From assembly GCA_044892525.1 (NCBI GenBank), contig CM097886.1, forward strand, positions 132,556,001 through 132,620,000: a DNA stretch of 64,000 nt. Direction: 5' to 3'. The translations under genes and the position numbers were made by a program. Origin of the DNA: Schmidtea polychroa (lineage: Eukaryota). This document shows, piece after piece, positions 4,924 through 38,599 of this stretch. The notes under the pieces are model-generated. The model was not told the DNA's origin. It made no database searches and worked only from the letters and a program-made list of their open reading frames with translations. Positions within the stretch are counted from its first letter, which is position 1. Every line of letters starts with the position of its first letter.

Positions 4924-5275
4924 CCATGCTACCTATGCACGCTCCGATAAAAATTCACAGCTAGCGCTGGTCAAGGAGAATCTTCTGCTTCATGCCAAGA
5001 TCAATCGTCTGGAGAGCACGTGGTTTTCATCTCTCCACAGATGCAAGAAAAGATAAAGGAAATCCACCGTCTTGAGCACTGCAGGAACAGTCTCATTTCG
5101 GAAAATATGGAACTTAGGGCTTTGTACCAGGTGTATACTGCCAGAGTACTGGGTTCTTGGGTATCTGGTTACAAAGCCATGGCCAGTAATACTGTCGACT
5201 AGCAACTAGTGCCCGACGTTCTCGCTCCGTCAGTCTGTGCAGGGTGCTCATAGTCAATATATTCCGCCGCCCCTG
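4924..5275 (+). pseudogene. Degenerate, isolated copy of the EGTWFSP coiled-coil family
   Basis: Frameshifted fragments PCYLC / SDKNSQL...INRLESTWFS / MQEKIKEIHRLEHCRNSLISE align with PCFSCADKN...LYEGTWFSP...KILRLEHCRDSLLEE of ORF 18242. Confidence 0.7.
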
Positions 5276-5634: not shown

Positions 5635-6369
5635 TCATTTATTAATATTAAACAACCCTGGGATCCAATATGAACGCCCACTATAATCATCAATCCACGC
5701 AATTCCTTCCTTAATTAAATATTCAACTGCTTGCTGTGATCTTTCTTCACTCCAATTAAGCTTTTCTGAACACAAAACAATATCGATTCGGCCATTTTGA
5801 TCTTGAGCAAATTTCAACAAATTTGTTTGATCCATATTCAACTCACCAGGTACAGATTGAACTAATTGCCGGTCTCGAGATAATGTGATTAGAGAAAATC
5901 CATTACCCAGAATTTTAATAGATTTGATAGATCTAATAACATCGTCTTTGCAAATAGTTTCTATTTCCATTTTGCTGCGGGTTCTATTCAACCTTGCCAC
6001 TAAATCATCGAGATCCATCAATCCCCCGTTATATTTAGATGTTGCCATTGTAATTTCAATTATCCGAATAGCCAAATGATAATAAAAATCACCAACACCA
6101 AGCATTTCTGCCCAAAAGCCTTTGCTAGACGCTAATGGATCAACCCCTATGGATGAACACATAGATTGAAATTGTGAACGAAATTCGGGATTCCTTTTTA
6201 TTTCGTTCTTATGTTTGACAGCAAACTCTTCTAAATGCGTTTTGAAAGATTCAAACTGTTTAACCAAACTAGCAAAATTTAATTCAGCAATTTCATTGGC
6301 CTTACTTTTGTATCTCGCTGCTGCTGCTTCTTTGTTTTTAATAGCAGCTATACCAACATTTCTACGCAT
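5635..6369 (-). CDS. SNF8: ESCRT-II subunit SNF8/VPS22/EAP30, intronless, 244 aa
   Basis: MRRNVGIAAI N-terminus, FKTHLEEFAVKHKNEIKRNPEFRSQFQSMCSSIGVDPLASSKGFWAEMLGVGDFYY, VQSVPGELNMDQ and GIAWID..YWIPGLF are characteristic; full length. Confidence 0.96.
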   Translation of the reverse strand: MRRNVGIAAIKNKEAAAARYKSKANEIAELNFASLVKQFESFKTHLEEFAVKHKNEIKRNPEFRSQFQSMCSSIGVDPLASSKGFWAEMLGVGDFYYHLAIRIIEITMATSKYNGGLMDLDDLVARLNRTRSKMEIETICKDDVIRSIKSIKILGNGFSLITLSRDRQLVQSVPGELNMDQTNLLKFAQDQNGRIDIVLCSEKLNWSEERSQQAVEYLIKEGIAWIDDYSGRSYWIPGLFNINK

Positions 6370-8513: not shown

Positions 8514-9029
8514 TTATATAATTATGTTGGTATTTGATAATTGAATTATCGTGTTTGCGAAAATTGGTGTTAATTTTACACTATAAAAAGCATGGATAAT
8601 AGTGGTCAATTGCAGCATTGTCGAAGAGAAAATTCCGTAGAGAATTATTCCAAGAATTTTCAGAGAAAAGAATGAAGTTAGAGCTAGTGAGTCAGCTTTC
8701 CTTTTGAAAATACCTGCCATGAGGCATTTATTTAAAGTACATGTAAAAATTAAAATATTCTTAGCAATCTTGTTAGAAATTGTAATGAAATTAAATAAAG
8801 TCTATTGTATTAGGTGTCATTGTTTTAATTCAACTAAAGATCCTATGGAGTTAGAGTGTATTACCAACTTTACAATGATTACCCAATAAATATTAATGGG
8901 CACATTGCCAAATACGCAAGTGCCTTGCCACCTTGACACTATTTGCTCACAAGATAACATAAAATGGTTTTTATGGTAATTCAAAAGAACAGCTGCAATG
9001 AAAAAATAAAACACAGATCCTATGAACAT
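8514..9029 (-). pseudogene. Hydrophobic multi-TM reading frame broken by two in-frame stops
   Basis: ORFs 8817-9029 and 8514-8720 are in the same frame, separated by TGA and TAG; about four hydrophobic segments and an SCEQ...C loop after the first. Confidence 0.3.
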
Positions 9030-9755
9030 ACAGATTTAAACATATTTTACAAATAGTTACGACAGAGTTGATAATTTTTATTTACGATAATCTTAGCAAT
9101 AGTTAGTTATTAGTCGTTGGTTACATTAGATTTATTACTGTCATACATAATACGACAGAATAACTTTATAAATCATTAATAAATTACGAATATATACTTT
9201 ATATTGTTGGGCCAAACTTCGAGAGTGTTGGAAATCAGGTTAGGGATGAATAAAAGGGATAAAATAAATTGCACGAAAATAGCGGAAAAATATAAGAACA
9301 ACTAAATTGGATAACAATAAAAGAAATAAGAATATAAAGGGAATAAAAATAACTAATAAAATAATAAAATTTATAAGACGAAAAATAAGATGAAAAAAGA
9401 AAATTACCCAACACACATAATAGCAGAAGGAAATAAAATAATAAAATTTAAGGAAAATAAACAAGAAATCAGGAAATAAAATAGAAATAAAACCATTTTC
9501 AAATAGATGTATAGGCTAATTAAAACAAAAAATTATACTATAACCAAATAGCAATAAATTCGCAGGAAAAACAGGAGAAAAATAATAAAAAATAGGAAAA
9601 TAAATAAAATAATAATAAAAATAAGAAAAGTCATTAAAAACTAGCATATTACATAAAAAAAACATAAAAATAATAATAAATAATAACATTACACACAAGT
9701 CGCGTCCTGATTGAACGAAGAATAGTATAAAAGGAATGTGAAAAATCTGTAGAGT

Positions 9756-9870
9756 ATCATTTTTAACCCGAACTCTACAGGTAAGAAATTCTTTGTAATT
9801 ATCATTTTTAACCCGAACTCTACAGGTAAGAAATTCTTTGTAAATATCATTTTTAACCCGAACTCTACAG
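9756..9870 (+). repeat. 45-bp tandem repeat, about 2.5 copies
   Basis: Unit atcatttttaacccgaactctacaggtaagaaattctttgtaa(t/a)t starts at 9756, 9801, 9846; gives the 15-aa repeat CRVRVKND.YKEFLT in minus ORF 9516-9953. Confidence 0.9.
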
Positions 9871-10195
9871 GGACGACATTCCAGAATCACTTCTAACCGA
9901 AACTCTACAGGAACCACTTTACAACCGACCCGAACTAAATAGCAGCGTAACATTTGTACTTACAACTCGACAACAACATTTACCAGGATCCAACTAAGCC
10001 AAGGAAGAAATTCGATTAAAATCTGATACTCGAAAGCCTGATTTTCTATACTCTCGAAGGGAATCTTTAGTAAGTATGTTGACTCATTGAATTTTAGTTG
10101 AATTTTATTATGATGCGACTGCAAATCAAAAGTCAAAAACATTTTAGTTCAATAAAATTTTATTTATGACACGACGACTCTCTTTCTCTATGGTG

Positions 10196-10396
10196 CTGGC
10201 GACGATGTCGTCAGGGAGTCCGATATGATGCGGCGAATTTGGATTACGAAGAGGATATGCAAGCGAATGCCTGAATATGAAAACTTGAATCGAAAATGTT
10301 GCATGAGTGAGGAGTGTTATATGCTCCAAGTGATGGAGGTACAATGATTATTGTCAGGAGGCATCATATCCGACACTCATACGGCGTCGTCGCCAG
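10196..10396 (+). other. Long stem-loop (arms 10196-10231 / 10361-10396)
   Basis: ctggcgacgatgtcgt pairs with acggcgtcgtcgccag (16 bp, two G-U); gatatgatgc pairs with gcatcatatc. Confidence 0.75.
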
Positions 10397-10526
10397 GTAA
10401 TTAATATTTTTCAATTGATAAATATGTTTCCTGAAGTTGTATTATTTATAAGATTATTCCAATTATTTTTCTGAGAGAGTCAGTGATGATAGAGGTATTG
10501 AGTAATGATGGTAGAGATAGATTCGT

Positions 10527-10588
10527 CCCTCCTGACGGTCCAAGAGCGGTGGCAGAAATGTATGCCGTTCTTGGGTGGGTCAGGAGGG
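10527..10588 (+). other. 62-nt hairpin
   Basis: ccctcctgac/gtcaggaggg, ccaagagc/gttcttgg and ggca/tgcc stems. Confidence 0.75.
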
Positions 10589-11498
10589 GTGAGGACATCT
10601 AGCGAACGACAGAAATTGGTTGGGAAAAGTCCTTGCATCGAGTGCGATCAACTACTTTTGTCGTCGAACGGATATTCCAGGAAAATGAGTAGCCACGAAG
10701 ATAAATCCCCAGAGAGCTCCAGAGAGATTTCGAATTGAACCCTCTCAGCACTATATTCCAATCGTCGATTGATTGCGCTTGAAAATTAGTATCCACTTCT
10801 TCTTGCACTCCTCGAAAAATCGTCGACTGAATATCCAATCGCTAGGAGTCGGTAGTTGTATAAAAATTCTAACGAGGCGCGCCGGAGATATCATATAGTC
10901 CGAGATCTTCTAGGATGTACATCGCAGACGGTAGCAACTAGCTCCATTTTTCTTGATGACTATCGGGTTCGAGTGAACGTATCGATAAATCTTGGCAGGT
11001 CGTTATCAGCGCTAGTAAGCCAACCCAGACAACATGATAAATGTTCTTAATAATTAATCAAAGTGATTACTGTAACCTGAGAGAAATTTATCATCGCTAT
11101 CATCGAGTAAACACCGATTCGTTTCCTCGTAGCTTAACACCGAACACTGCAGACGACCAGGAATGCTTCGATAAATTATCCAGCGTGTAGATTGCGAAGG
11201 AAGGCCCTCGAGTGAATGAGAATACAACACTTATCGCAATGTCAATAGAGTAGGGAAAATCCGATTACAAAGGCAAGATTTATCCGATCGTCTAACTGCT
11301 AGTCTACATACTCACAGTCATTGATCTCCTATTATCACAACGACCACTCTTTATGTCTGTCTGCGACAGCCGGCAGTGAGGCTGAACGTCACGATTGATA
11401 AAACTGACGACTCGTACATGCACCCAACAACTTTTCCTCGATGAAATAAAAAGTAGTCTACATCATTAGCATGATAACTGTTTTCTGTAACTTCATCT

Positions 11499-11521
11499 AA
11501 AAAAAAAAAAAAAAAAAAAAA
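11499..11521 (+). repeat. Poly(A) run, possible retroposition tail
   Basis: 23 consecutive A, about 50 nt after AATAAA at 11445. Confidence 0.6.
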
Positions 11522-12187
11522 TCAAATTTTATTTCAATAAATTGGCGGGCCACTTGGCCAAAAAGGGGAGAACTTCTCACCCTTGGAGTTCTGCAGCTTT
11601 TAATCTTTCAACTGCTATTGCTGGAATTGAAACTCCCGCAATTGTACGTGGTTACAGACGGGATAAGCGGAGTTGATCGGATTGGTAGTATTGTCGAAGT
11701 CTGAGTTAGCGTTGACAATTGAGTTAACCGTCTCGATCAATTGATTTAGGGCATCAGGGGTAAGGTTCTGATTGAAGAGATTAGGTTGCAGATGATGATT
11801 TTATCATAAGTATAATTTTCGGAAGTTTCTGGACAAGATTGATATTATTGACGGGTTTTTTCGGTCCGCCAATTGAGAGGAGTACCGGATCGTACGGGAT
11901 AATATCTGAAATAAATAAATGTCGGGGCAGGAAGGCTCCCTTGCAAATCTATATAGCGCTTATTATAATACTTATTATATTATATATTGTAAGGAGTTGG
12001 TGAAGGTTGGGACAAGTATAGATAGTAGTATTAGTTGGTAGTATTAGTGATTATAGTAGCGATAGTATAATAAAGATCATCATAGTATTGATAAGAACAA
12101 CTAAAAAGACCACCAAATAGGCAGAACCCCTACAAGGATTCCTACATAGACCCATTCGGTGATTGGCACACGCAGTACATTATTAAT
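11522..12187 (-). mobile_element. Possible degenerate non-LTR retroelement fragment or 3' region
   Basis: Broken frames (FISDIIPYDPVLLSIG; TPDALNQLIETVNSIVNANS) loosely recall the APE-RT linker of LINEs; ends ...gaaataaaatttga(T)n on minus. Confidence 0.3.
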
Positions 12188-12359
12188 NNNNNNNNNNNNN
12201 NNNNNNNNNNNNNNNNNNNNNNNNNNNNNNNNNNNNNNNNNNNNNNNNNNNNNNNNNNNNNNNNNNNNNNNNNNNNNNNNNNNNNNNNNNNNNNNNNNNN
12301 NNNNNNNNNNNNNNNNNNNNNNNNNNNNNNNNNNNNNNNNNNNNNNNNNNNNNNNNNNN
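12188..12359. other. Assembly gap (others at 28379-28570, 62605-62799, 63478-63622)
   Basis: N runs. Confidence 0.99.
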
Positions 12360-14880
12360 ATAATAATATTACAACATTAGGAATATATGGTCAGAGAGAG
12401 TTTAGATTTTAATTTTTAAAGTATTTTAGTTATTTATTGGATTTATTTACTGGAGGATATTTATATATTTGATTAATAATAGTAAATAATATAGATAATA
12501 GCCATAGTACACAAATAGAATAGGATAATGCTCTGAGTATATATTATATATCAATATCTGGGTTTCAAGATTGGTTTACCAAGAGACAAAGAAAATTGTA
12601 GAGGGGTGATATATAATAACCATAGAATACAAATAAATAAAAGATGCTTTGACTACAAAAAGATAAATATATAAGTATAATTAATTTTTATAAATATGTT
12701 GACGATATATGTGGTAGCTGCTATTGATTGCAGCTACGCAAGCTTTTTTGGCTAGTTCCTTTATTTCATTATTGGATAAGCCGATAATTTTAAGTATCGA
12801 GTCATTATTTTTGTCCCATGAACCAAGGGTGCCAACTACCAGGGCATGTAGAGTGTGTGGGCATTTATGGAGTCTACCTATTTCCTCTCCTAGTTCCTTA
12901 TATTTATTATAGTTATTTCTCCTAGAGTTGTCGTAGTTTTCTCTGGAGTCGAAAGGAACCTTAATGTCTAAGATATGGATAGATTTGTTACGCTTAGATT
13001 TTAGAAGAAGATCGGGCTTAAGGGTGGAATTGGTACCTTCAGGTACTTTCTCTATGTCTACTTCATAGTTAATAGATATAAAGAAGTTTGCCACAGTTTC
13101 TAGGACATTATCATGCTTATTTCGTCTTGCATTAATACGTGCTTGGCAATGATTAAAGATGTGTGCAGGTGTTTCTGGGTGGGCATGGCAGTGCCGGCAG
13201 AGTATAGATTTATTAGTCTTTAGGCGGTGTGGTGAGTAGTTCAGTTTTAGAAGGTTGTTGCGTGCGCGAATAAGAAAGAGGAATTGGGCATCAGGAAGGA
13301 TGTCACTTTTAAAGAAATAGTCGGCGATGTTGCTTTCGCTAATTGCCTTTGCCATATAGCCCTGGCATTTCATCGCACACCAACGTTCAGCATGAATAAG
13401 GCCAATAATAGAGTGTAGTTCAGCTGAGGTTCTATCCACATTACCGAGGGAGAAGTAATTGATACGACTCTTATATTTTATTTCAAGCTGTAGAAGGTCC
13501 TCAAGCATTACAATTTTGGTAGATATACCGTAGTTATGAAGCAGACGACGGGCGGATTTTTTAAATTTTGAGAAGATGGAGAAAGTTGGGTAGCTTTTAG
13601 AGAGTTGGCCATTCAGCCAGGACAGTGCCACATTTAAATCTCCTTGTCCCCTAGCCTCGATAAGTTCAGCAGTAATGAGAGTCTTAAAGTTAAGATCGCT
13701 AGAGTTTAAAGCCCTGATAAGTTGTACGATGCTTTGAATAAGGTATTCGTCAATGGATGATACAAGTCCAAGACCACCAAGCTTGCAAGCTGCATATAAG
13801 AAGTTGTCATTCAGCTGCATTATCTTATCTCCAATGGATCTTTTAATACCCTGTTTTATTTGCAGGTCGAATCCATATTGTTGTATTTCAGAGTTACGAA
13901 GGATGTTGCGCGGAGAGTCAAGGATGTTGTGGTTAATGACACAATTTCTAAAAGTAAAGTTCAAGCGGGAGTGGATGAATACTTTAAAGGCATTAATTTT
14001 TTGCGAAGGATGTAGATGAGAGTTGAGAATTTTGTTTGTGTCTATAATAGCGGAGTCTAGTCTTTCTTTGATACAGTGTTTAGTTTTATGGGAGAAGTCA
14101 ACTCCAAGATATCTGTACATATTAGAATCATCAATTTTTGGAAGGGTTTCGCCATAGAGTAGAATAGGTTGGTAGTTGCAGTCGTGATCAACATGAAAGT
14201 ATCCGGATTTCGAGGGTTTAAAGCGTAGGTTGACCTTTGTTGCAAGGGAGACAGTGAGAGATAGGGCCGACTTGATATTGGAGTAGGAATCAGATATAAG
14301 CACTATATCATCGGCATACGCAAGAATGCTAATGTTGTGATTATGAAAGAGAAACGGGTGAGTTTGTAAGACATTGCGGAGTATGAAGTCAATGGATAGA
14401 CAGAACAGAGTCATGGACAAGGGGCAGCCTTGTTTCACACCTTTATAAATTGGTGTATAATCAGATTTTTCTCCCTCACATTCAAAGTAAGTTTGTACAT
14501 TGTTGTACATGTCCTGAAGAAGAGCAATAGTGGTGTTGTGTTGCCTAGAGAAATCCATTAGTATTACTACATCTACTGATTCATGCACACATTAACCTTA
14601 GGTTTTGGCGGACTCGAATACAGTAAGTAGATTACTGCCACTATTACATACTCATAGAAGGTGAGGAAGCGAGACTACTTGTGTGATCAGACAGTGAGAT
14701 TACGTCACCCTTGAACACTACGAAGTTCTAGATTGTTCAATAGTACCCACTGAGGATTTATCCGGTAACGCACATATTCCATCAGAAATAGAATCGTTCG
14801 CCAACATACATCTACGAGGAAAATAAAACATACTGGCACACAGCTAGGTGTAGTCATGACGATATTGATAGCGCAGGATT
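12360..14880 (-). mobile_element. Extent of the RLE retrotransposon copy
   Basis: Broken RT-like frames continue upstream (CWRTIL, WVLLNNLELRSVQG, LLTVFESAK); the 3' region runs into the N-gap. Confidence 0.55.
12681..14588 (-). CDS. RT-CCHC-RLE ORF of an R2-superfamily non-LTR retrotransposon (NeSL/Utopia-like), 5'-degenerate
   Basis: RT motifs GVKQGCPLS, LAYADD, YRYLG; HPSQKINAFKVF; zinc knuckle CRHCHAHPETPAHIFNHC; RLE core KHDNV...KPDLL...ILDIKVPFD...NKYKEL. Confidence 0.9.
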   Translation of the reverse strand: MHESVDVVILMDFSRQHNTTIALLQDMYNNVQTYFECEGEKSDYTPIYKGVKQGCPLSMTLFCLSIDFILRNVLQTHPFLFHNHNISILAYADDIVLISDSYSNIKSALSLTVSLATKVNLRFKPSKSGYFHVDHDCNYQPILLYGETLPKIDDSNMYRYLGVDFSHKTKHCIKERLDSAIIDTNKILNSHLHPSQKINAFKVFIHSRLNFTFRNCVINHNILDSPRNILRNSEIQQYGFDLQIKQGIKRSIGDKIMQLNDNFLYAACKLGGLGLVSSIDEYLIQSIVQLIRALNSSDLNFKTLITAELIEARGQGDLNVALSWLNGQLSKSYPTFSIFSKFKKSARRLLHNYGISTKIVMLEDLLQLEIKYKSRINYFSLGNVDRTSAELHSIIGLIHAERWCAMKCQGYMAKAISESNIADYFFKSDILPDAQFLFLIRARNNLLKLNYSPHRLKTNKSILCRHCHAHPETPAHIFNHCQARINARRNKHDNVLETVANFFISINYEVDIEKVPEGTNSTLKPDLLLKSKRNKSIHILDIKVPFDSRENYDNSRRNNYNKYKELGEEIGRLHKCPHTLHALVVGTLGSWDKNNDSILKIIGLSNNEIKELAKKACVAAINSSYHIYRQHIYKN

Positions 14881-16192
14881 TGGATAGTTATACTGCAATT
14901 TATAATAATATATTAAACCAATATATTTTTCGATTTTCTTTCTTTTTTATAGATCTGTTCAGACTCAATACAGCGCAAATAGATACCGACAACGTCGAAC
15001 TATTGTCCCGTAGCCCGCGCTCACGTGACTCAACAAAACATAATAATAAACTATAACCATCATCTCATGGGAAATACAGTAGAGAGGATAGAATTTTTAG
15101 AAATGAAGGAGTAAGCGTGTATTAGATGGGGATTTGCCAGTCGAATAATGGACCTAAAGTTGAGTTTATGTTAAACAAAATAATTATTATGAGTGTTTCC
15201 GATTTTTTTTTCTTTCTTCCTAATTTGCATGGATGGAGAGGATCAATTTGAATGCTTGTGAGTGAACGGGTATGGATGGAAACAAAGGGTATAAATGTGT
15301 TGGGCTAAATTTTGAAGTGGAGAAAACTGGATCAAATAGAGAAGCGAACCTCGAAAAAATAAACGAAATACGATAAAAAATAAATTACCATCAAATCTCA
15401 GTAGTAAATAGGGAGAAACAATAAAATACCAATAAAAGAAATAGGAATAAGTAACCAAAATGAATAAAACCCCTAAGATTTGGAAATAAGACAAAAGGGA
15501 AATGATTTAAAGCACACAGCGGATAAAGTAGAAATAGAATAAGCAAAAAAGTGAGAAAAATAAACGAGATATTAAAGAAATAAATAAAAATAAAACCATC
15601 CTTAAGTCTAATTAAAACAAAAAATTATATTACAATAAAGTAGCAATAAATCCGCAGAAAAAATAGGAGAAAAAATAACAAAAATAAGAAAATGAATAAA
15701 ATAATAATAAGAAATAAGTTAAGTCATTAATTATAATAAAAACATAAAAATAATAATAAATAACGAAATTACAAACAAGTCGTGTCCTGATTGGACGAAA
15801 AATAATATATAAGGAACGGAAAATATCTGTAGAGTACCACTTTTAAAAAATACTCTACAGGTAAAATTTTGTTTGTTATTGCACTACTTTTAAAAAATAC
15901 TCTACAGATTTTACAGACTTCGGAATATTTAACTAGATCATCCTACAGCGAACTATTTCAGAGACTACGAAACCAAATCTAGGAAGGAATATATAGTAAT
16001 CAAACGACAAGTCTATTCAGGACAACTTCCAAATTCAATCGATTTAATCCAGTTTTCGAAACCCGAGGTATGTCTCAGCAGTTGGTTTATGTATGGTTGT
16101 TAGTTTAATTTAGTTAATTTTTGTAAATATAATTAAAAAACAATTTCATGCAATAAATTTATTTAAATGAAAAACAGTCTTTCTTCATGGTG

Positions 16193-16428
16193 CCGGCGAC
16201 TGTACCATCTGGGAGCTTCAGGTATGATGTGGACGAGCAAGAGGTATGTCACGGTGGAGAGCACGGCCACGAGGAATTTTCATAATATGCATCCAGAAGA
16301 TGTTGCAAAATTTAGATACTTAGAGAAAACGATAATAGTTTATGAGGTGTTCACCAACGTTGCGATCAAACGTGCGATTGTATGGAAGAGAGACATCATA
16401 CTTGGAGCCCAAATGATATGGTCGCCGG
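16193..16428 (+). other. Long stem-loop, homolog of 10196-10396
   Basis: Arms 16193-16230 / 16393-16428 give about 34 bp (ccggcgac/gtcgccgg, ggtatgatgt/acatcatact). Confidence 0.75.
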
Positions 16429-16527
16429 GTAAATTTTATTTATTCATTTACCCATCATTCATTTTTGATCATTATATAAATTTTGCACAAATTGTTGATC
16501 TAACTGAATGGAAAAGAGTTGATTGGT

Positions 16528-16589
16528 CCCTCATGACGGTGCAAGAGCGGCGGCAGAAATGAATGCCATTCTTGGGTGTGTCATGAGGG
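16528..16589 (+). other. 62-nt hairpin, homolog of 10527-10588
   Basis: ccctcatgac/gtcatgaggg, a compensatory C-G to A-T change relative to copy A. Confidence 0.75.
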
Positions 16590-17929
16590 GTGAAGAAACT
16601 CAGGAGGTCGAAATCCAGTTGAGAAGTGAAATTTCCTTCATCGAGTGCGATCGTTTATGGAGCATCCCATCGTTTCATTCAGTCACACTGAGATCTCTAA
16701 CAGTTGTAAAGAGGATTTAAATTTCAAAGGAGGATAATTCAGATTGAGATTGATATCGATGTTCATACTGATTTGATAAGAATCCACATAAATAGAAGAA
16801 ATTTTTATTATACTCAGCCTGTCAGTCAACGTAGTTAGGAAGAGCACTTGTCGACCATAGTTTGCAAGAAAATCCAACAATTTTTCTGTAAGGTATTGCA
16901 TTCTCGAGGATTCTATCTGATTTGTGTCGCCAGGACGCTAGCGTCTACATCCATCGTCGATGTACGCTTAAAATTGAACTGTTGTCCTTGAATTGCCGAT
17001 ATCAGTGATAAGTAATTTCTCTCTGACGGGGAAGTAAACATCTCGCAACAAAATTATCAAAATACTCACTTTAAGCTCGAAGGAGATAGTTGCCAACGAT
17101 AACAAAATTCGTCGAATTATCTTAGCCAGCTTGGAGTTAGCCGACGTGGATAGCTGATAATGTCTTGGAAGGGGAGATAGTGTATCGGTTTTCTGGTAAG
17201 AATTGTCGATCGAATGAGTCGATAATCGTTGCCCTAAATCAACATCGTAAAAATGAGTTGGATAATAGAATCAAGCTTACGCAGTAACTTCACTGATTTG
17301 TCGCCTATTCATGATGCTTAATCTGATTCTCCCGATCTGTCTACGGCTGCTGCTTAGTTAAGGAAACTATTATGCAATCCATATTATTCTGACTTAGGAA
17401 TGCACATACACACGTACACACCCGTCAATTCTGCACAAGGCAGCATAAAGATAAATCTACGATTAGGGCAGAAAATATTTTGGTGATGTAATGATTGTGT
17501 GATAGCATGAATTGTCACAAGACAGTGAGACGGTAGGCAGGAGTAAGGGAATGGATTTCCTCAACTCAACTTGACATTTAAGAACCTCTCCTAATCGTAC
17601 AAACAATTGTTCGATGTAATAGCCAATACAAAACTGCAGATGCAGCCAGGAGTATCCGCACACCTAAATGTCCATTCATAATGCATGACTACAGGTAAAC
17701 GTCTCCATGACGACGATTACGACACATTATTTAAATTAATTAGATTTTAATTTAGAGCTTAATTTTAACTAATTTTTGATTATTTTTATAATTTTGAGTG
17801 AGTAAAAAACATAAGTAACTATCAGCCGCCGCGAATTAATTTTCTATAATTTTATGTACGCCTACATCGACAGAAGACTGCAACGAGATCGGAAAAATTT
17901 TAATAATAAAGACATAATAAGGGGAACCA

Positions 17930-18130
17930 GGTTGAAGGGAATAGAGGAAAGAACGAGTTTTTTATGGAGATTGTCCAATCCGAAAGTAAATCCTAGGGGT
18001 GAGGCTTAGATAGAGAGAATTATTTGCGTGAATCACCCGTTTTCTTTTCTTAATTTACATGGGTTGGGTGAAGTAATTTGAATGCTTACAACTAAACGAC
18101 TGTGAATAGGGATGGATGATGAGATCTGTG
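17930..18130. repeat. Third partial fragment of family 2
   Basis: ttcttttcttaatttacatgggttgggtgaagtaatttgaatgctt (about 18040-18090) matches ctttcttcctaatttgcatggatggagaggatcaatttgaatgctt (about 15210-15260). Confidence 0.5.
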
Positions 18131-18241
18131 GGCTATCGCTGTATGGAATGTTTGATGAAACTACGAACCCATGTCCCAAAAAATTGACTATATCATACTA
18201 ATAAATGTTTCGAATAAACATAAAAATGATTGACTTTCTAG

Positions 18242-18991
18242 ATGACTACACCGTCCAACAATGCCAAAGAACTTCGCCCGTGTTTTTCTTGCGCTGACAA
18301 GAACGCGGATATCGCCCAACTTCACTTGTATATCGGGGCCCTCAAGAAGCGGATAGACCTCTATGAAGGGACGTGGTTCTCCCCGCTACAGATGAAGGAG
18401 GAGCGAAGTAAGATCCTCAGATTAGAGCACTGTAGAGACAGCCTCCTGGAGGAGAGCCGCTGCCAAAGACTCACAATAAAGGCCCAGTCCGAAGCCCTCC
18501 ACAAGGTCTATACGGAGGCAGAACTAGCCAAACGGGTGCGCGAATTTCCCGTCTTGGATGGAACAAACGTTTTCCCTCTCCACCACCAGTCCTCTACATC
18601 TTCCACCTCAAATTGCCAGGGGCATGGCTCACATCTGCCGCCCATCCCAGGCCCAGTACTGTCGGGTTATCGACTAATGGCAGGCGGTTCTTCTGACCCA
18701 ATTCTTGTGGCACCTACCGCCACTACGGCTGTAGGGGATAATCTGCCGCCCCGCAAACGCAAGCGACCAACCAGAGCTGAGAAGAATCAAAAACGCAGAG
18801 ATGCAATGGCAGCACTCGAGGCGTCATTATCTGCGGCGCAGTCGAAAATAACAGAAATATCGTCCACCCATTCAATCCCCACGAAAGAAGTTTTTCGCAT
18901 TGTCCCGGCCGAAGGTATCAAATTTATATCGGACTGTCGGCTACCTGTCGATATCGATGCGATGATTTCCGAAGGAGAAAGTTTCGCGTAA
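18242..18991 (+). CDS. Novel 249-aa protein (CxxC, coiled coil, EGTWFSP, basic NLS-like PPRKRKRP)
   Basis: Intact ATG-TAA ORF, GC-richer than host DNA; the tandem paralog differs mainly at synonymous sites. Confidence 0.85.
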   Translation: MTTPSNNAKELRPCFSCADKNADIAQLHLYIGALKKRIDLYEGTWFSPLQMKEERSKILRLEHCRDSLLEESRCQRLTIKAQSEALHKVYTEAELAKRVREFPVLDGTNVFPLHHQSSTSSTSNCQGHGSHLPPIPGPVLSGYRLMAGGSSDPILVAPTATTAVGDNLPPRKRKRPTRAEKNQKRRDAMAALEASLSAAQSKITEISSTHSIPTKEVFRIVPAEGIKFISDCRLPVDIDAMISEGESFA

Positions 18992-19164
18992 TCCAGCTTA
19001 CGGTCGATCTCGATTCTTTCTTTCGAATTGTAAATTGATTTTCGATGTCGAAAAACTGACAGCCTTGTGTATTTGCAACTGATGTAGATTCTGTTAATTT
19101 AGTAATAGTTGTGTGTAATTTTGTTATGGCTTTAATATATTTTGTTTAATTCCGTTGTAGTAAC

Positions 19165-19525
19165 TCTTCAAAACGCATGATTGTGTAATCTGAGTGACTA
19201 GGAGGATGATGTGGAATGAAAGTAATTAGGGTGAAGGTCGTTCCCTTGGACCAGGATCGGACCGAGATATATGTATGAATGTGGGTAAGTCCTTCTAAGG
19301 CACCGTGGAACCCGAACCGCGAGTGGGTTAGCAGTAGTCCTAAGGCAGGGGCTCACCTGTTAACCAACTCCAACCCGTGTGGGCAGCACCAACGTGGAAC
19401 ATCGCCACGGGCTCACATGAGGGAATATTCATGAAGTCATTTGGAGTATGATCGGGGAAAAGGCCGAGTCGAATGCACGTAATCATAATTCTGGTAACAA
19501 ATATTGTTTTCTCCCCTCATACTCC
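19165..19525. other. Conserved non-coding module 1 downstream of the EGTWFSP ORF
   Basis: Aligns with 20550-20938; 32-nt identical core gtagtcctaaggcaggggctcacctgttaacc (19334-19365); shared hairpins. Confidence 0.75.
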
Positions 19526-19643
19526 AACAATTGTCTGTAAGTGGAATGAGTAGGGGTAATGCCGGACCCGTAAATTTTTATTGTTTTTATAAATCTCGCG
19601 TAAACAGTTTCACGAATTTGGATAAATACTTCTTGATCTTCAG

Positions 19644-20406
19644 ATATCTGCAAAATCCAATACCAATCAAGAGCATCGTCCGTGTTTTTCTTGCGCAGAC
19701 AAGAATGCGGATATCGCCCAACTACATCTATACATCGGGGCACTCAAGAAGCGGATAGATGTATATGAAGGTACGTGGTTCTCCCCGCCACAGATGAAAG
19801 AAGAACGAAGTAAGATCCTGAGACTGGAGCATTGTCGCGACAGCCTTCTGGAGGAGAGCCGTTGCCAGAGGCTGACAATAAAAGCCCAGTCGGAAGCCCT
19901 CCATAAGGTTTATACGGAGGCCGAGCTAGCCAAACGGGTACGAGAATTCCCCGTCCAGGATGGGGCGAACGTTTTCTCCCTTCATCATGGGCCATCTGAA
20001 TCTTCCACTTCAAGCTGTCAGGGGCATGGTCCCCATCTGCCGCCCATTCCGGCCCCAATACTATCGGCTTATCGGCCAATCGACCCTCTGATCCGATCCT
20101 GGCCCCAATCCTCGTGACCCCCGTTGAAAACCCTTCAACAGGAAACATTCAGCCACCTCGTAAGCGGAAGCGGCCAACCCGATCAGCGAAAAATCAAAAA
20201 CGCAGGGACGCAATGGCCGCCCTCGAAGCGTCATTGTCAGTGGCGCAATCAAAATCAACGAGATATCTTCCACGCATTCAATTCCCACCAAGGAGATCCT
20301 CAAAATAATTCCGGCAGAAGGAATTAAATACGTTTCTGATCATTACCTACCTGTCGACATCGACGAGATGATTGCCGAAGGCGATGGCTTTAGTGAGCAA
20401 CTGTGA
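19644..20406 (+). pseudogene. Tandem paralog of 18242-18991 with lost start and two frameshifts
   Basis: ATA (19644) sits at the ATG position; frameshifts near 20075 and 20250; restored C-terminus EISSTHSIPTKEILKIIPAEGIKYVSDHYLPVDIDEMIAEG matches the intact copy. Confidence 0.85.
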
Positions 20407-20549
20407 TCGGTCCCGATCTTCTCTCGTGAACTGACATTGTAAAAGCTGATGGTGTTGTATATAAATATTGAAGGAATCGATGTGTTGATGTTGTAAATGA
20501 TCCCTCGTAATAAATTAATTTTCAATACAAATTTTTGACTTCTTTTGGT

Positions 20550-20938
20550 TATTCTCAACGTGCATGATTCGTAATCTGTTTGAATGCAAGCGTGTTGTAG
20601 AATGATGGTGATTAGGTTTACGGTCGTCCTTTTGGACCAGGGGCGGACTGAGTTACACGTATAGAAGTGGGTAAGACCTTCTAAGGTAAAACCTTCTAAG
20701 ACCTTCTAAGACACCGTGGAACCCGAACCGAGAAGTGGTTAGGAGTAGTCCTAAGGCAGGGGCTCACCTGTTAACCTCTTCCAACCCGTGTGGGCAGTAC
20801 CAACGTGGAACATCACCACGGGCCCATACGTGGGAATATTAGTAAGATCATTTGGAGTATGTCAGGGAAGGGCCTGAGCGGAACGACGATGATTTGTATG
20901 TTTGGTAACAATGTTAATCTTTTTCCCCCGCATACACC
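20550..20938. other. Conserved non-coding module 2
   Basis: Core at 20745-20776; extra local duplication of accttctaag. Confidence 0.75.
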
Positions 20939-21878
20939 ATTAATATAAAATATAAAAGCATTACCAAAAGAAAATACTAAACTTTATTCTTAACGAAATG
21001 TAAATGTGTATTTGATATAAACTATAAAGCAAAAGTACCAGCAAAGAGTCGTATGACAATCCCTCAAAAGTCAAAATCGGCCATTCCCACCAAACGTACC
21101 TGAAATTGAAAATTTATTGTTAATAAATAAATTACTTCCAAGCTAGCCAAAGAAGATTACACCACTCACGACGCGCACAACCGAGGGAGAAGTAAGTAAA
21201 ACGAGAAACTAAGCTCGTCACTAATACTTATTGCCCCAGTGTACCCGAATTTAGTGGTAAATTACCAAAATGGTCTGATTTCATAAATTCGTAGAAAAAT
21301 TAATGTATTAAATTTTGAATTACCATCTAGTGGTAAACAAGATTCTGAAAATTTAAATGATTAAATTAAACAAAGTTAATTGTTAATCAATTTTAGGGTA
21401 TATTTAGTTAAAGTGTAAGATTTACTAGAAATTTACTCAGGACTATGGAATTTCTCTTTAATTAAAAATTAATTTCGGAAATACAGGTTGTAATTGCAGT
21501 CGTTTCTCTAGTCATACAACTTCATTAAATTTTTTAACTAAGTTACAACTATCGAAAATGATTAACTTTGAATGCAAGGTTTTAATTATGAACTCCGTTG
21601 TCCGAGGCCCTTCTTCCGTACGACCTGATCATTATTTTGTAGATTTCTTAATTAAAATATTTTTCAAATTATGTAAATTTCATTTTATAATTAAAAATTC
21701 TGGCAACTACCCACTATTTCCGTCCATCTACCTATGTCCTCGTTGAGTATTTAGAACACTTAGGGGGAGTGATGGCAGAATGAGTTAGTAGGTTTGGGAA
21801 GTAGTCAGTGAAATTCTTGTGCTAAAAGACTCATATCAGTCTTTGTAAGGTGTCCTGATTTCGATTTGTATTGTAGAA

Positions 21879-22235
21879 ATGTCACACTCTGGCGATTATA
21901 GCGATGATGAAGCCTACAGACAAATGATTACGCGGCTCCGGACCCGGTACCCGATTCATGATTGGAATCGGGGGCTGGACTTGGTTAATTACGGCCCGGT
22001 TATCCGGAGTGGCCCAGAGCCCGACGCTCCGGCGTGGGTGAAGAAGGAGCCCACTAACGACTTGTTACGAGAGGCCCGCGATTGAGTGGTTATCGAAGTG
22101 GAGGCTGCCCAAATGCGGCTGAAGAAAATCGAGCTCCAGCTCCGGGCCGAAAAGGAAGGAGTGCCGCTAGAAGAGCTGGAGGATGTAGAAGCGCCCCCAC
22201 GGAAGCGAGGGAGGCCCCGTAAGAACCCAGCATAA
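21879..22235 (+). CDS. GC-rich ORF ending in an AT-hook (RKRGRPRK), with one internal TGA at 22083
   Basis: MSHSGDYSDD...LLREARD*VVIEVEAAQMRLKKIELQLRAEKEGVPLEELEDVEAPPRKRGRPRKNPA; the frame stays open after the TGA. Confidence 0.6.
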
Positions 22236-22493
22236 TCCATCGACAATTTTCCTGCATTTATGACTTGAATTGAACATTTGACTTGTTTAATTGGTGATAC
22301 TTTCTTTGATTTGGTTGTAGTTCGTGTAATAAATTATTTCTTTGTCAAATTATTGGCTTTATAGATTATGGTGTATTCTTGTGATTTAGGAGACCTTTTT
22401 TTAACATCCAACTAATAATTTACGATGAAATTAAACGAATCACCTTTATGTACATGGAAGTGAGTCATAGAATTTGATTGTTGTCTTCATTCA

Positions 22494-22931
22494 GTGTTCA
22501 AATTACTCGAAAATTTACGCAAGGACCGTGAGCAGGCCCAACAACAAGCCGAAGACCTCCGAGGCCGAGTCGAGAAATTCAAAGTGAGGTGCCGAGAACT
22601 CGAGGGCACTTGGTTCAGTCCGGCCGAGATGAAAAAACGAACGACACACATCTTGCAACTCCAGACCCAGGCGGAGCAGGATCAACTGGAAATACGGGCA
22701 CTGAAGTTACAAGTGCGCACGCTCGAGAGCAAACTGAACGAAAGGTTCATTCAGGACACTCTCCGAGAGCAGATTCGCCCGTTACCCGTGGAGCTGGCCA
22801 AGATATACCCACCGGCCCAGGCAAGCAAGCCGAAATGCAAACGGCTAGGGCGGAATACCCGAGAAAAATTGAAAAGGGCCTGGCTGGCCGAACAGGAAAA
22901 GCTGAGAGTCCGAGGCCGCCCACGATCCTGA
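22494..22931 (+). CDS. Diverged EGTWFSP-family coiled-coil protein (probably a 3' exon)
   Basis: CRELEGTWFSPAEMK matches IDLYEGTWFSPLQMK; heptad pattern; starts at a ttcattcAG acceptor with no ATG; ends RGRPRS. Confidence 0.7.
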   Translation: MFKLLENLRKDREQAQQQAEDLRGRVEKFKVRCRELEGTWFSPAEMKKRTTHILQLQTQAEQDQLEIRALKLQVRTLESKLNERFIQDTLREQIRPLPVELAKIYPPAQASKPKCKRLGRNTREKLKRAWLAEQEKLRVRGRPRS

Positions 22932-23059
22932 AGGGTAATTGAGAGTGCGACCCCTCCTGGGTAAAACGGATATTGTAACATTGTGATGCCTAAATAAATA
23001 ATTTTCACCATCTGATGTGTATGTAGTTGAATCTTATGATTGTTGAAATTCGTCTTTTT

Positions 23060-24158
23060 TTACATGACAAAAAAAATATTTACAGAGCTTACCGATACTA
23101 GATGGTTACTAATGTTAATGTTCTTAACTGATTTTACTATACATTTGAATGAATTAAACAAGAAACTTTTTAGCACTCACCCTTTTGATACAGTATCATC
23201 GTTGATCACTCAACGGGTATCAAGCGGAGAAACATTCGTTTGTATTCTGGGTTACGCTGGATACAGCGCGAATAGGGAAAATGAGTGCTTGCCTGTAACC
23301 CACCAAAAACTTCAAATGGAAAATAATGAAAAACTGAAGGAATAAGGTGTGTGTTTCTTGTTTAGTCTCAACCGGATTGGGACCAAATCCTTTTAATAAA
23401 TTTTGATCATGCATTCCACTCTTTAAAACCGATAGAAACGGCCCTTCTATGTGAATTCTCACTTAGTATTTTATAGGTCTTCGACAATATTCCATTTTTT
23501 GACACAACAAGTGTTGGACAGAAACCTGTCACGCCGAATTTAACGAGATTCTTACTAACTACTTTTAAACTAGTTTCAAGCTCCTGTGATAAATCGGAAA
23601 AGTTATATCTGTATCCACCATTAATCTGAATATCGATGAATCCTGGAGATAAAATTGGACTCTGACTATCTTTAACGACATCAGGAGCTCATTTGTCGAC
23701 ATAAAACTGCTCTGAATCTTGAATAGCGCCATCTCTGATCCATAAATCATCCACAATAATTTTGGAATTCAAACAGAGAGAGCAATTAGTAAATTTAATA
23801 AATTGATTTGAAAAAGAAAATTGATGGAAATCTTCAATTTTGTTAACTATCATTACCAAAGTTATTCAGAGTAGGAAAATATTTTCTAGTAAATTATTTT
23901 ACATATATGTATAGTAAAATACACTCAGTTCCACAAGCAAATTCAAAAACAAATATTTTAGCTAAATTCTATATTTTTAAATTCTACACAACTTCCAATT
24001 CAAAGAAGAAATTAATAAATTTAAACAAATCAAAAAAACATAAAATTTTCGAAAAATCTCAAATCAAAGTAAATTAATTATTATTCTTCAACAGTGTGCA
24101 ATGAAAAATTTCAGATAAGGTCAATGTGCCATGAGCTAAAAAAGGTTGAGAACCACTG
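23060..24158 (+). mobile_element. Fragments of a Buster/Charlie-type hAT element
   Basis: ELTDTRWLLMLMFLTDFTIHLNELNKKL (GTF2IRD2-like) and a terminal ggttgagaaccactg at 24144-24158. Confidence 0.45.
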
Positions 24159-25795
24159 CGCTAGAAGTTGCAACATTATTATTTATGTAAGTGTGATGAA
24201 AATAACCACATAAAAACAAACAAAGGTGATTCCAGATGGATTTCAGTTCGAGTCCTCACTGACAACGACACGCTGCTAGTCAACAAGCAAGTGACCGAGC
24301 CGACGAAGAAGTTTTTACACCCCAATCGTTGCCCGCTCACCTGCCTACTCATAGATTATAACTATACGATTTTACTATTATAAAAGGTTATCAGAGAGTC
24401 ATTACTTATGCTTCAAAATATAAAAATATACAATACTACTATTATAGAAAGTTATTAGAAAATCATTAATTATATAGCAAAATACTCAACAAGGGAGAAC
24501 AAACTATTAAAATTTTAAATGATTTTAATTTTAACATAAAATTACATGGAATTATAGACCAAATATAAAAATTTTAATTTACAAAATTACCAATAATGCT
24601 CCACAGGTTCAAAAATAATATAAATGACTGAATTCGCCACTGGCAATTTAAATTCTCCTCTTGAATAAATGTCGAGATTTGAGGAGCACAAAAAATTTCT
24701 TCTAGAAATAGTCGTGCGATTCAAACTTAACTTGAATAGTCGTAAGATAACTCTGAGAATGGGAAGTAATGGATCTTTGAAAAATGAAACTAAGTCCAGA
24801 GTTTGAAAATAAGTGGTTTAAATTAGTTGCCAAATACTTCGGTTAGCAAAAAATGGTTGATAATATGTAATGAGAAAAGACAGTAAAATTGTTTTTTGAC
24901 TGAAAAAGTGGATAGAAGTGGATAACTGTGGAAAATAAGTGTTTTTGTGGCTTCTGAGAGACCCGTATATATACTTTTTGGTCTTGTTTTTTTCAACCAA
25001 TCACAATCGAGATTGTGTGTTTTTGGTTTTATTCTTTTAAATTAAATTAAATTAAATTATTTTAATTAATCATTTAATTTTTTCTTTTTTTTGCTTGGTT
25101 GACTGATCGCCTTTTTATACTAATTTTATTTGATAAATAAAATAGTATTTTTTGCTATTTTTGTGTCTTTTCCACGATTTTTGTTATTTTCTTGTCTTTA
25201 AAATGTGCTTCCTGTGCAACTGCTAACATTTATTATTTTATTATTCTTGATTTTAATTATTTCTATTTTTGTTTTATTTTATCTTATTTGATGTTTTTAC
25301 TAGATTTTAATTATTCTTCTTGCTTTTTCTTTGCTGTATGGGTTCTCTCCGTTACCTCTTAGTTCATCAAGTAAAAATAAAGAGAAAAGAAATTTTTTTT
25401 AAAAGAGTAGTTTGATTCTCAGCCCAACACAAGTAATTTTTTATATATTATTTAAATAATAATAATATTAATAATATTCAGGTCCGTATGAAAGTAATAG
25501 CTGCTTTTTCAGAATTCTTGGTATTAAAAATTTGCAAAATTCGCTGTTGAAAAAAAAATTTTATTAATATTTTAAAATATAATCAAATATGATCACATTT
25601 TTTTAGACACTTTGTAGCTTTATATATGCAAGGTAGATACAATCTGATTAGAAAATTCCATTCTCATAGATTTACTCGATAAACTGAATATTGTTTCGCA
25701 ATTTGGAGCAAATTTGTTATGTAATACTGACAAACTGTGAAAAAAATTTCTATTTGAACTCATTACAATAATTCCAATACAAAATCTGTCAAAAA

Positions 25796-34837: not shown

Positions 34838-36558
34838 CCGGATAGTCTCTAAAGTAAGACCACTCGAAAGTAAGGCCATGGTCTTACTTTCGAGTGGTCT
34901 TACTTTCGAGACAAATAAAATTGATTTCCATTAAAAAATTATATATCCATATATATATATATATATCCATTATATATCCAAAATTTTTATATCCATATGA
35001 CAAATACAAGACGATCATATACAGTTAAGTTTAAGCTGGATATACTTGAACGCTTGATTGTGAACAAGGGAAACATCAGTAAGACGGCACGTGAAAACAA
35101 TATAACATCCAAAATGTTGCGTGATTGGTTATACCAGAAGGATACTCTTTTGAGCGTAACCAGGAAAAATGTACTAAAGAAAGTGGGATGTGGAAGAAAA
35201 GCCGAATTTCCAGAATTGGAAAAACTTTTGGTTGAATATGTTAAATTCGAAAGGATGGTTTTCAAACGAGCAGTTTCCGTGTACCTTTTGAGACAAAAAG
35301 CAATGGAATATATAACTGCAAACAATTTGTCGCTTGTATTAAGTCAATGTTGGGTTCATAATTTCTTTAGAAGAAACAATCTATCCTATCGTAAAATAAC
35401 AAGCATTGGACAACAGGATAATCGAAGTCATTCCGAGATAAAGGAAATAATTACAAACCATTTAGAAAAAGTGAAAATTTGCCAAATGTATGATGAAAGT
35501 AATATTTATAATATGGATGAAACACCCATTTATATAGATACTATGTCATCAAAGACTATAACTACCAAAGGTGAAAAAAAATGTCGAAGCAAAGGGAACT
35601 GGGCACTGCAAAACACGTTTTTCAGTCGTGCTACTTATTTCAGCCAATGGAAAACTTCATAGAACTCTTGTGATTCTTAAAAAATTGCGTAAAGTTCCCA
35701 AATGCTTTATTCCAAAAAATCTAATGGTAATTACATCTGAATCTGGAACGATGACAACGGAAATAATGAAAACGTGAATCCAAAATTGTTTTCCATGCGA
35801 TAATATTTTTGGGCAAAACAGGAAAGCTGTAATTATTTTTGATAAGTTTAGTGCACATACAAGAAATGAAGTTACAGATCTTTTCACTCGACTTAATGTG
35901 AAAACAATTGAAATTCCGGAAAAAACAACTGCATTTTTACAGCCTCTTGATGTTGTTATTAATTTTATTTTTAAAAACGAATATAGAAAAAGATGGTCGG
36001 AATGGATGGCAAATGGGGATGCAAATTTCACTAAAATGGGATACAGGCAGAAACCCTGTTGGGAAATTATATTCAAATGGGTATCTGAATCGGTTGATCA
36101 AATAAAGACCGAGAGTATACAAAAGGCATTTGTTTGTTGTGGCATTTTTGGGGTTAATCAAGACTATAACGGGGATTTGTTTAATAACAATCTTAAACAA
36201 AAATTGATAGGTGTGGAAGCAGACGATGGTTTTGTTGTGGAAGAAGAATTATCGGAAGAGAAGGAGTATGTTGATTTTGGTGAATAAAAATGAAATCATG
36301 TTTCATTAAAAACACTGTGAATTCATATTCTATGTTTTACCTTTATTTATGTTCTGTTAAAGTGTATTTTGTTTTACAATTTTATTTTTATGTCTTAATT
36401 TCCTCACATTTTTATTGATTTAACGAGGGCATAACAAGGGTTGGGGTATCATTCTCCACTCGAAAGTAAGACCGGTCTTACTTTCGATTTCTTTATTTCG
36501 CGTTGAAATCTATAAAAATTCGAAAGTAAGACCTGGTCTTACTTTTGAGACTATCCGG
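34838..36558 (+). mobile_element. pogo/Tigger-like DNA transposon, full length but disrupted
   Basis: TIRs ccggatagtctc(t/a)aaagtaagacca flanked by TA; BrkDBD-like RRSYTVKFKL, CENP-B HTH, DDE_1 motifs NMDETP, FDKFSAH, LQPLDV; frameshift in the A-run near 35575 and TGA at 35775. Confidence 0.9.
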
Positions 36559-37042
36559 TATATATATTGTTACAATAAGCTGCTACAACCTTTGTTAGTT
36601 CCAATTCCTCACTAATAACTGGAAATTCTTCATATTCCTTTAGGACAGTGACTCCAAAATGGATTCCCACGGAAGCCCAGGGTTCCATGAGAAACTCAAG
36701 GGTTCCACGGGATAATGAGTTCTAATATTAGATATTGCCAATTTTAAAATTTCTTCAATAAATATTTTTGAATGCAATTCAAATTTTTAGTCCATTCGTC
36801 AAGTTTCATCAAATAAATTGCAACGTACGTTATTAATTTCAGTCAAATTCATCTAAAAATCGCGAAAGATTGGCCTTAACCCCTTAACGCGCACTGACGT
36901 ATATATACGTTCGCGCAAAACCGGACAAAATGTGCAGTGACGTGATAGTTTTTGAATAGTTTTAGTTTATTATTTTTCACCTAATAAATATTATTATTTT
37001 ATTGTTACATTATATTGTTATTTATTGAAATTGGTCCAAATA

Positions 37043-38522: not shown

Positions 38523-38599
38523 TATTTTCTTAAAGAAAAAAAATTGATTTTTTTTGGTCGTTTTTTTTAAAATTGTGCGTTAAGGGGTTAATAATATTT

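Follow-up and report, generated by a model that had tools for sequence, protein, structure and literature searches.

HIV-1 intron-containing RNA carries the RRE, a multi-stem RNA of 234 nt that lies in env, far from rev, and on which Rev, made from spliced RNA, oligomerises (PMC7551171). The CTE of MPMV/SRV-1 has a core of ~150 nt with two AAGACA-type hexamers in loops (PMC4330393, PMC4174252, PMC7551171), AAGACA being a reported NXF1-binding motif (PMC4174252), and the gamma-CTE of MLV is described as a stem capped by an AAGACA loop. Among invertebrates, the C. elegans LTR element Cer1 makes CERV, a lineage-restricted nuclear protein with a leucine zipper and a KRKK signal, which is produced from spliced RNA and needed for export of the unspliced genomic RNA (PMC10309623); the spliced RNA of an invertebrate LTR element can thus give rise to a protein dedicated to export, and the accessible text of that source names no cis RNA element for CERV. 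A role resembling that of retroviral accessory proteins has been proposed for the accessory ORFs of plant LTR elements (PMC7264820), and planarians host the giant gypsy-like LTR elements Burro and GYPSM1, with internal regions of up to 25 kb and total lengths above 30 kb (PMC6431247). The export of unspliced RNA from invertebrate LTR elements is little described in the literature.

Here we describe a non-coding module that occurs twice in a 64-kb window of Schmidtea polychroa DNA (the whole stretch analysed, 64,000 nucleotides), each time behind an ORF of one protein family, here called EGTW (Table 1). That it represents a selected plus-strand RNA structure within a mobile element is very probable; our leading proposal for its function, to which we assign a probability of about one in three, is that of an intron-located cis RNA element for the export of unspliced retroelement RNA, similar in kind to RRE/Rev or to a CTE. 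Neither the module RNA nor the EGTW protein was found described in the literature searched, although the repeat may already be catalogued, Repbase and the Burro maps being outside the search. The cassette pairs a protein of 249 aa with an RNA of 240 nt and comes in very many natural variants, so that the question lends itself to direct testing. Should the export proposal prove wrong, the RNA would still be a strongly selected structure unmatched in Rfam, and the protein would still belong to a family that contaminates the gene models of hosts and has no counterpart in Pfam, PDB or BFVD.

Table 1. Features of the modules, the associated ORFs and the LTR-like blocks (positions within the window)
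Feature	Position	Strand	Remarks
Whole module, copy 1	19165-19525	+	361 nt
Whole module, copy 2	20550-20939	+	389 nt; from sequence comparison
5' part of module	19165-19284	+	72% identical between copies; small GGTC/GACC hairpin; possible leader exon
Donor-like GG/GTAAG	19285-19289; copy 2 20671-20675	+	5' edge of core; putative splice donor, judged by its motif
First AAG(G/A)CA hexamer	19297-19302; copy 2 20708-20713	+	exact AAGACA in copy 2
Invariant 19-nt stretch	19301-19319	+	includes CCGTGG 19303-19308; between-copy comparison
Stem A	19321-19370; copy 2 20732-20781	+	AAGGCA hexaloop 19342-19347; folding and pair changes
Stem B	19374-19422; copy 2 20785-20833	+	8x1 internal loop; folding and pair changes
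3' domain	19442-19526	+	closing stem TGG.GTATG/CATAC.CCA; weaker support
Small covarying hairpin	19452-19467	+	inside 3' domain
Invariant TGGTAACAA	19492-19500	+	branch-point-like; with pyrimidine tract, inside 3' stem
ORF1	18242-18991	+	249 aa; directly behind acceptor-like AG 18240-18241; long helices and basic patch PPRKRKRP...KRR predicted
ORF2	19644-20400	+	ORF1 paralogue behind AG 19642-19643; broken in this copy
ORF D	21879-22235	+	behind acceptor-like AG; one in-frame stop midway; basic C-terminus
ORF C	22494-22931	+	third EGTWFSP paralogue; 26-28% identical to ORF1 and ORF2
Fourth EGTW member	4964-5196		decayed, frame-broken; outside main element, no module
Block U2 (putative LTR)	15298-16200	+	TGTTGGG start after purine-rich tract
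Block U2, promoter-like landmarks	15786; 15806; 15827-15860	+	CCAAT-like box; TATA; 10-bp hairpin ending at donor-like CAG/GTAA
Block U2, 3' landmarks	16152; 16188	+	AATAAA; then CA/TGG primer-site-like stretch
Block U1, same landmarks in same order	9205, 9706, 9726, 9747, 10151, 10191	+	
Long hairpin a	~16193-16428; U1 10196-10396	+	z -4.6; U1 z -4.0
Long hairpin b	~16525-16590; U1 10522-10597	+	z -5.8; U1 z -7.0

The module is a real feature and is under selection. Its core (19286-19435 in copy 1, 20697-20846 in copy 2) is identical between copies at 130 of 150 positions (87%), the 5' part at 86 of 120 and the 3' domain at 53 of 92 (58%), compared with 76 of 140 (54%) in the spacer 3' of the ORF stop codon and 44 of 103 (43%) in the sequence 3' of the module, as a previous reading made from the sequence alone (hereafter, the sequence-only reading) had proposed for module and spacer. 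Homology between the copies stops at 19526 and 20939. Both modules are part of a direct repeat (18267-19526 and 19669-20939, 72% identical), whose ungapped match opens at an AG dinucleotide in each copy (18240, 19642). ORF1 and ORF2 have diverged at synonymous sites (pS 0.542, dS 0.96; pN 0.053; dN/dS 0.057 over 131 codons and 0.023 across the first 95), of which only 46% are identical; since the ORF paralogues stand at dS ~1, the copies must be old, and the core, at 87%, has been kept far above synonymous sites rather than at the level of a neutral flank. A neutral tandem duplication or local gene conversion without function is therefore extremely improbable: the two copies do lie side by side, where conversion could make them locally more alike, but the 20 substitutions in the 150 core sites follow a pair-preserving pattern, contig depth peaks at the core and dN/dS is 0.06.

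Some details of the sequence-only reading needed adjustment. The identical stretch it had noted in the core is present (at 19333 and 20744) but measures 33 nt instead of 32, and a module follows two of the four family ORFs, not each of them, being absent behind the third (22494-22931) and the decayed fourth (~4964-5196). The recurrence of short motifs in copy 1 was found as reported (CTAAGGCA at 19295 and 19340, CGTGGAAC at 19304 and 19393, GGGCTCAC at 19349 and 19409), as was GTGG/GTAAG in both copies (GGGTAAG at 19283 and 20669). Overall, 8-mer recurrence in the module is marginal (4 observed, 1.1 expected, P 0.063); two occurrences of CTAAG(A/G)CA are rare in shuffles (P 5e-5), for a motif picked post hoc. 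Copy 2 has a 25-nt internal duplication ahead of AAGACA, and one of the short motifs is duplicated in tandem in that copy. Within the window, nhmmer found no module copies beyond the two, and the core has no exact match in viral or metagenome contig collections; a 19-mer seed did recur in the metagenome, but at 20 of 20 loci there was neither similarity outside the seed nor a relative of the ORF, and these matches were set aside as chance.

The core is predicted to fold as a plus-strand RNA. Compared with shuffled sequences, its folding energy reaches z -3.0 (copy 1) and -3.5 (copy 2) on the plus strand but only -0.7 and -0.2 on the minus strand, and the consensus fold of the two copies z -3.1 and -0.8, respectively. 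The foldability previously ascribed to the whole module thus belongs to the core, as the complete 361- and 389-nt modules fold no better than shuffles (z -1.32 and -0.59 on the plus strand, +0.25 and -0.09 on the minus strand). Imposing the plus-strand fold of either copy on its counterpart breaks 1 of 35 and 0 of 34 pairs, where 6.4 and 6.5 are expected (P 0.0006 and 0 of 5000, substitutions permuted), and the same test gives no effect in control regions of the ORFs (P 0.42, 0.92). The alignment behind these tests consists of the two full copies, and a shuffle among sequences is uninformative at n=2 (120 of 500). With the 3' domain included, 8 of 51 and 14 of 60 pairs are broken; that domain by itself folds well in copy 1 and less so in copy 2 (z -3.8 and -1.0), and the 5' part is weakly structured (z +0.5 and -1.1).

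Two stems carry the pattern. In stem A, two adjacent pairs have changed in a compensatory manner (19323:19368 from GC to AU and 19324:19367 from UA to GC) below an invariant AAGGCA hexaloop with an unpaired probability of 1.00 and 0.97 in the two copies, while stem B shows three one-sided G-C/G-U changes, every one of which keeps its pair on the plus strand. CCGTGG (19303-19308) could in addition pair with CCACGG (19405-19410) in a predicted pseudoknot with stem B, a helix that never varies. Structure prediction recovers all three hairpins proposed from the sequence (ggtc/gacc, cgtgg/ccacg and ggtt/aacc) in each copy, but not the minus-strand helix gagcccg/cgggttc, whose pair probability does not exceed 0.10 in copy 1 and is 0 in copy 2. 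In folds of the minus strand, 3 of 32 and 3 of 27 pairs are broken, and 4 and 2 changes are both-sided; of the four in copy 1 (P 0.0002), two mirror stem A and two belong to a small hairpin with two broken pairs. The plus polarity is therefore assigned from energy and G-U pairs, since the minus strand also has both-sided changes, partly mirror images. Taken together, the conservation far above synonymous sites and the structure-preserving plus-strand changes uphold the earlier suggestion of a cis-acting RNA.

The same changes bear on a DNA-level element, be it an internal promoter or enhancer or an iteron-like protein-binding array. The short motifs do recur, one of them in tandem in copy 2, and the 5' part is 72% conserved despite its weak structure; on the other hand, the compensatory and G-U-keeping changes are those of a single strand, which disfavours the iteron-like origin that had been put forward, and there is no TATA-like match within either module. 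We consider this explanation quite improbable for the module, although the 5' part, taken by itself, may be such an element.

The module matched no RNA family. The Rfam comparison proposed earlier was run over 9000-16000, 16000-24000 and 19150-19560 and gave chance hits only, far under the gathering scores. Group I/II introns, RNase P/MRP, SRP RNA, telomerase RNA, spliced-leader RNA and tRNA were dropped by eye on their characteristic features; Rfam supports none of them, and ARAGORN found no tRNA. A new self-cleaving ribozyme, with the 1.4-kb unit as an integrated circular-RNA agent of the deltavirus, retrozyme or Terminon kind, is very unlikely. The size of the unit, its single basic coiled-coil ORF, the possible pseudoknot and the many invariant unpaired bases would suit such an agent, and delta antigen is a weak Atlas neighbour (0.78, a lead only); against it, circular folding of both units on both strands gives no rod (58-62% pairing, 21-25 hairpin loops), a dS of ~1 between the copies is not what a rolling-circle concatemer would show, and HDV_ag matches none of nine family members. 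Descriptors built as simple patterns found no hammerhead core in the modules and no HDV-like fold over 9000-23500, in agreement with the sequence-only reading. Terminons and Penelope-like elements also have head-to-tail units, coiled-coil ORFs and a repeated terminal RNA fold (PMC6431247), but the Terminon fold is a hammerhead, and none was found in the module. This candidate was rejected because, in addition, the nearby reverse transcriptase is antisense and R2/NeSL-like (RVT_1 and zf-RVT).

The EGTW proteins, two of which are encoded next to the modules, measure 145-250 aa and are predicted to be all-helical. The monomer model of ORF1 (pTM 0.41) predicts helices at residues 17-41, 48-89 and 178-201, the last being a C-terminal helix behind the basic patch. 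ORF2 has no start codon at the homologous place, and its frame breaks near 20075-20105 and 20251-20260. ORF1 matched nothing in Pfam or PDB, and a fold comparison with BFVD and PDB gave no hit reaching E 0.001; the PDB sequence search returned Med9 only (E 0.22), a word-index protein search gave no relative, no relative was found in viral contigs, and the Atlas hits of ORF1 and ORF C were generic coiled coils. ORF D has no Pfam family over its cut-off. A HMMER search with ORF1 against 1.84 billion representatives gave 11 hits, of which 10 were kept (P0002-P0011), P0001 being discarded as a low-complexity match outside the domain. The ten share ORF1 residues ~30-120 at 33-41% identity, and profile searches added no further proteins (3 and 1 hits, all already known); as 8000 candidates were scored in the second, a fusion to a polyprotein may still exist. 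An arginine run of the N(R/S)RRRERR type follows the helices in six of the ten; ORF1 itself has an NLS-like K/R patch and no arginine run. Pfam REV is matched by one of nine members, at 19.1 bits where the cut-off is 22, a score that reflects composition rather than homology.

Nine of the ten relatives are longer models with additional sequence beside the domain, and eight match unrelated Pfam families (SNF, GDC-P, CRAL-TRIO, Peptidase_S8, Actin, ABC_tran, L21p and Y_phosphatase), so that the EGTW domain appears built into predicted host proteins of eight unrelated families. These database entries are likely chimeric gene models, and a dispersed exon preceded by a strong acceptor would be expected to yield such fusions. 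ORF1, ORF2, ORF D and ORF C each start at or just behind an AG with pyrimidine-rich sequence upstream, which places their putative acceptors at 18242, 19644, 21877 and 22495. A 35-nt GTGAGT...TTCAG segment before ORF C (22460-22494) resembles a micro-intron whose removal would create a start codon. On the minus strand, local folding excess reaches z -4.9 inside ORF C (22600-22839) and -3.0 to -3.5 at 21140-21290, in scans of many windows with 25-60 shuffles.

The sequence-only reading had treated the cassette by itself and missed that it belongs to a far larger, high-copy LTR-like element spanning at least 15400-22970. Block U2 lies ~2 kb upstream of the ORF1/module cassette and recurs as block U1, the regions 15298-17700 and 9205-11500 being two diverged copies that are 76% alike across their best stretch, with compensatory changes between them in hairpins a and b. 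A TGG-starting 13-nt stretch after AATAAA is common to both blocks, and in U1 the hairpin at the presumed start, with its donor-like end, is triplicated. An LTR followed by a primer site is the layout that matches this order. The element is probably of the LTR type, although several points fall short of a textbook case: the local match at the TG start of U1 and U2 is not significant against shuffles (15 of 500), the purine tract 5' of 15298 has 11 purines in 12 positions yet stands 8 nt from the TG, U1 ends in TA and not CA, neither a near-identical LTR pair nor a target-site duplication was seen in this copy, and none of the 24 ORFs scanned is a gag or pol gene, nor does an env adjoin the cassette. 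This copy of the element breaks off near 23000, so gag and pol may still exist in the family. The end of the module was rejected as an LTR end, as CCAACA occurs in copy 1 only and no primer site follows it. Like the present element, Burro has accessory ORFs, one of them upstream of the polyprotein, and tandem repeats (PMC6431247); it differs, in a comparison by description only, in the longer LTRs implied by its size (the LTR-like block here measures ~0.9-1.0 kb) and in its polyprotein, which is absent from the 64-kb window.

The element is abundant. Contigs aligning to 15400-23200 at ≥80% likeness number 8,544, 4,649, 4,652 and 1,127 in four of the 15 public contig sets listed, each of which covers all 30 bins of the interval. 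Depth peaks at the promoter-like block, the N-termini of the ORFs, both module cores, ORF D and ORF C, and dips in the spacers; in set X5 it amounts to 16,532 and 29,460 at the cores and 21,613 and 18,303 at the ORFs, but 1,079 and 1,785 in the spacers. Contig depth is not a copy number, and shows that the core is recognisable in very many copies. Among the contig pieces listed, none spans the whole element; several overlap across 16528-18390 (X3 record 9, X7 record 26, X1 records 2-4, X3 record 12), and the order from hairpin b to ORF1 is therefore not peculiar to this copy. The 1810-nt contig X3 record 12 matches 18112-18390 only, which indicates that the upstream context differs in some copies.

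These observations lead to the export proposal. Core and ORF are under purifying selection and were duplicated together as a single 1.4-kb cassette, and stems A and B, according to the computations above, retain plus-strand pairing across the two copies. Transcription would start in the upstream LTR-like block, whose donor would be spliced to the AG before each small ORF; the core would lie just behind its own donor-like site, such that only RNA keeping the intron would carry it; and an oligomerising basic protein in the manner of Rev, or NXF1 via the AAG(G/A)CA loop, would bind the core and carry the RNA out. GG/GTAAG is kept not only in both copies but also in four variants with other upstream letters (runs X3, X5 and X7; three loose ends and one joint), in line with the leader exon suggested by the sequence-only reading; no spliced GT..AG joint appears at the module among the joints listed (15 of 126), and none of the contig sets is on record as RNA. 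The leader of copy 1 was rejected as a source of the start codon because the variants do not keep phase.

The likeness to Rev/RRE consists in a 240-nt multi-stem domain behind a donor-like site, paired with a basic protein, predicted to be helical, behind an acceptor-like site; the module has no sequence or Rfam similarity to the RRE and, unlike the latter, is adjacent to its ORF and was duplicated jointly with it. CERV, at 517 aa, with gag-shared exons and M and G domains (PMC10309623), differs in size and make-up from the predicted all-helical EGTW protein. With the CTE the module has in common two hexamers per element and the size of the core, and it may also share a hexamer in a loop, but three of the four sites read AAGGCA and only one (20708) is an exact AAGACA. 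Of these sites, only that of stem A is clearly unpaired; the first hexamer has a mean unpaired probability of only 0.22 in copy 1 and 0.52 in copy 2. The CTE architecture as such, in which a single long stem-loop bears two internal loops related by two-fold symmetry, was rejected, as the module is predicted to form separate hairpins and the hexamer caps one of them, a placement also described for the gamma-CTE. CCTAAGGCAGG agrees with a CTE strand at 10 of 11 positions (primer in PMC4330393) and, on both strands of the 64 kb, occurs only at the two modules (P 0.0023 in 20,000 shuffles), the CTE comparison having been chosen post hoc from many RNA motifs. The wider idea, that a flatworm retroelement lineage evolved its own Rev/RRE-like cassette plus a CTE-like NXF1 loop, and with them both export strategies outside retroviruses, is doubtful.

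The position of the module also invites explanations that involve no export step. In a splicing/polyadenylation switch, the donor would bind the splicing component U1 and silence a poly(A) signal behind the ORF, and with branch point and pyrimidine tract masked by the 3' stem, the intron would often be retained. There is an AATAAA at 20509, ~160 nt before the copy-2 donor, with others after ORF D and ORF C (22328, 22993), but none between the ORF1 stop and the module. Invariant TGGTAACAA and the pyrimidine tract do lie inside the 3' stem, with AG-free runs of 73 and 80 nt there; runs of at least 70 nt, however, make up 6 of 174 in nearby non-coding DNA, these two excluded, and are thus uncommon without being exceptional. 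This scheme also leaves the invariant loops of stems A and B unexplained, and we consider it unlikely. Retroviral psi sits behind the splice donor. A psi-like packaging or dimerisation signal that selects unspliced genomic RNA for the particle would accordingly fit the position of the module behind its donor-like site, as well as the invariant GTTAAC palindrome in stem A, but a distance of ~3 kb separates the module from the primer-site-like stretch, where the leader position is already taken by hairpins a and b, two copies per element would be unusual and gag is not at hand, which leaves this reading rather unlikely too.

A stable small RNA released from the intron, of H/ACA-like kind, or a VA-RNA-like gene of a Polinton-type DNA element is a poor prospect. 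Copy 2 does have an ANANNA box (ATATTA) after stem B, with an invariant ACA 67 nt further on, and the A at 19430 carries most depth in three of the four contig sets. Between the boxes, however, there is no common 3' hairpin (z +0.48 and -2.00, with a consensus stem of 4 bp only), stem B lacks a two-sided pocket, the 3' stem contains T4/T5 runs, and no Polinton core gene is present among the 24 ORFs scanned; a box H/ACA RNA was rejected, as the boxes are present but the second hairpin is not common to the copies.

As a whole, the window is animal DNA rich in AT, in which host genes are found along with numerous remnants of transposons. A 5'-truncated R2/NeSL-like non-LTR retrotransposon (RVT_1, zf-RVT) occupies 12681-14591 on the minus strand, between U1 and U2, with an N gap at ~12188-12359 and, on the plus strand, an A run at ~11500-11522 in its vicinity; ~55 nt before the A run, a CTGACGA...GAAA hammerhead-like core with a mismatched stem II (11404-11446, plus strand) is found that is absent from U2. 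An intronless host gene of the EAP30/Vps36 family (E 2e-56) lies at 5635-6369 on the minus strand. A DDE_3 transposase ORF of 376 aa (37038-38527) is flanked by 108-nt inverted repeats that are 96% complementary, and further DNA transposon remnants at 34997-35662, 57874-58233, 59587-60366, 44908-45231, 52174-52485 and 23040-24160 are, by Pfam, Tc5/CENP-B-like, BED-finger/DUF659, DUF4371 and DDE_1, some of them below the cut-off. The piece following the element at ~23040 looks hAT/Buster-like. At 61700-62840 lies an array of 12-nt units with a higher-order period of 36 nt.
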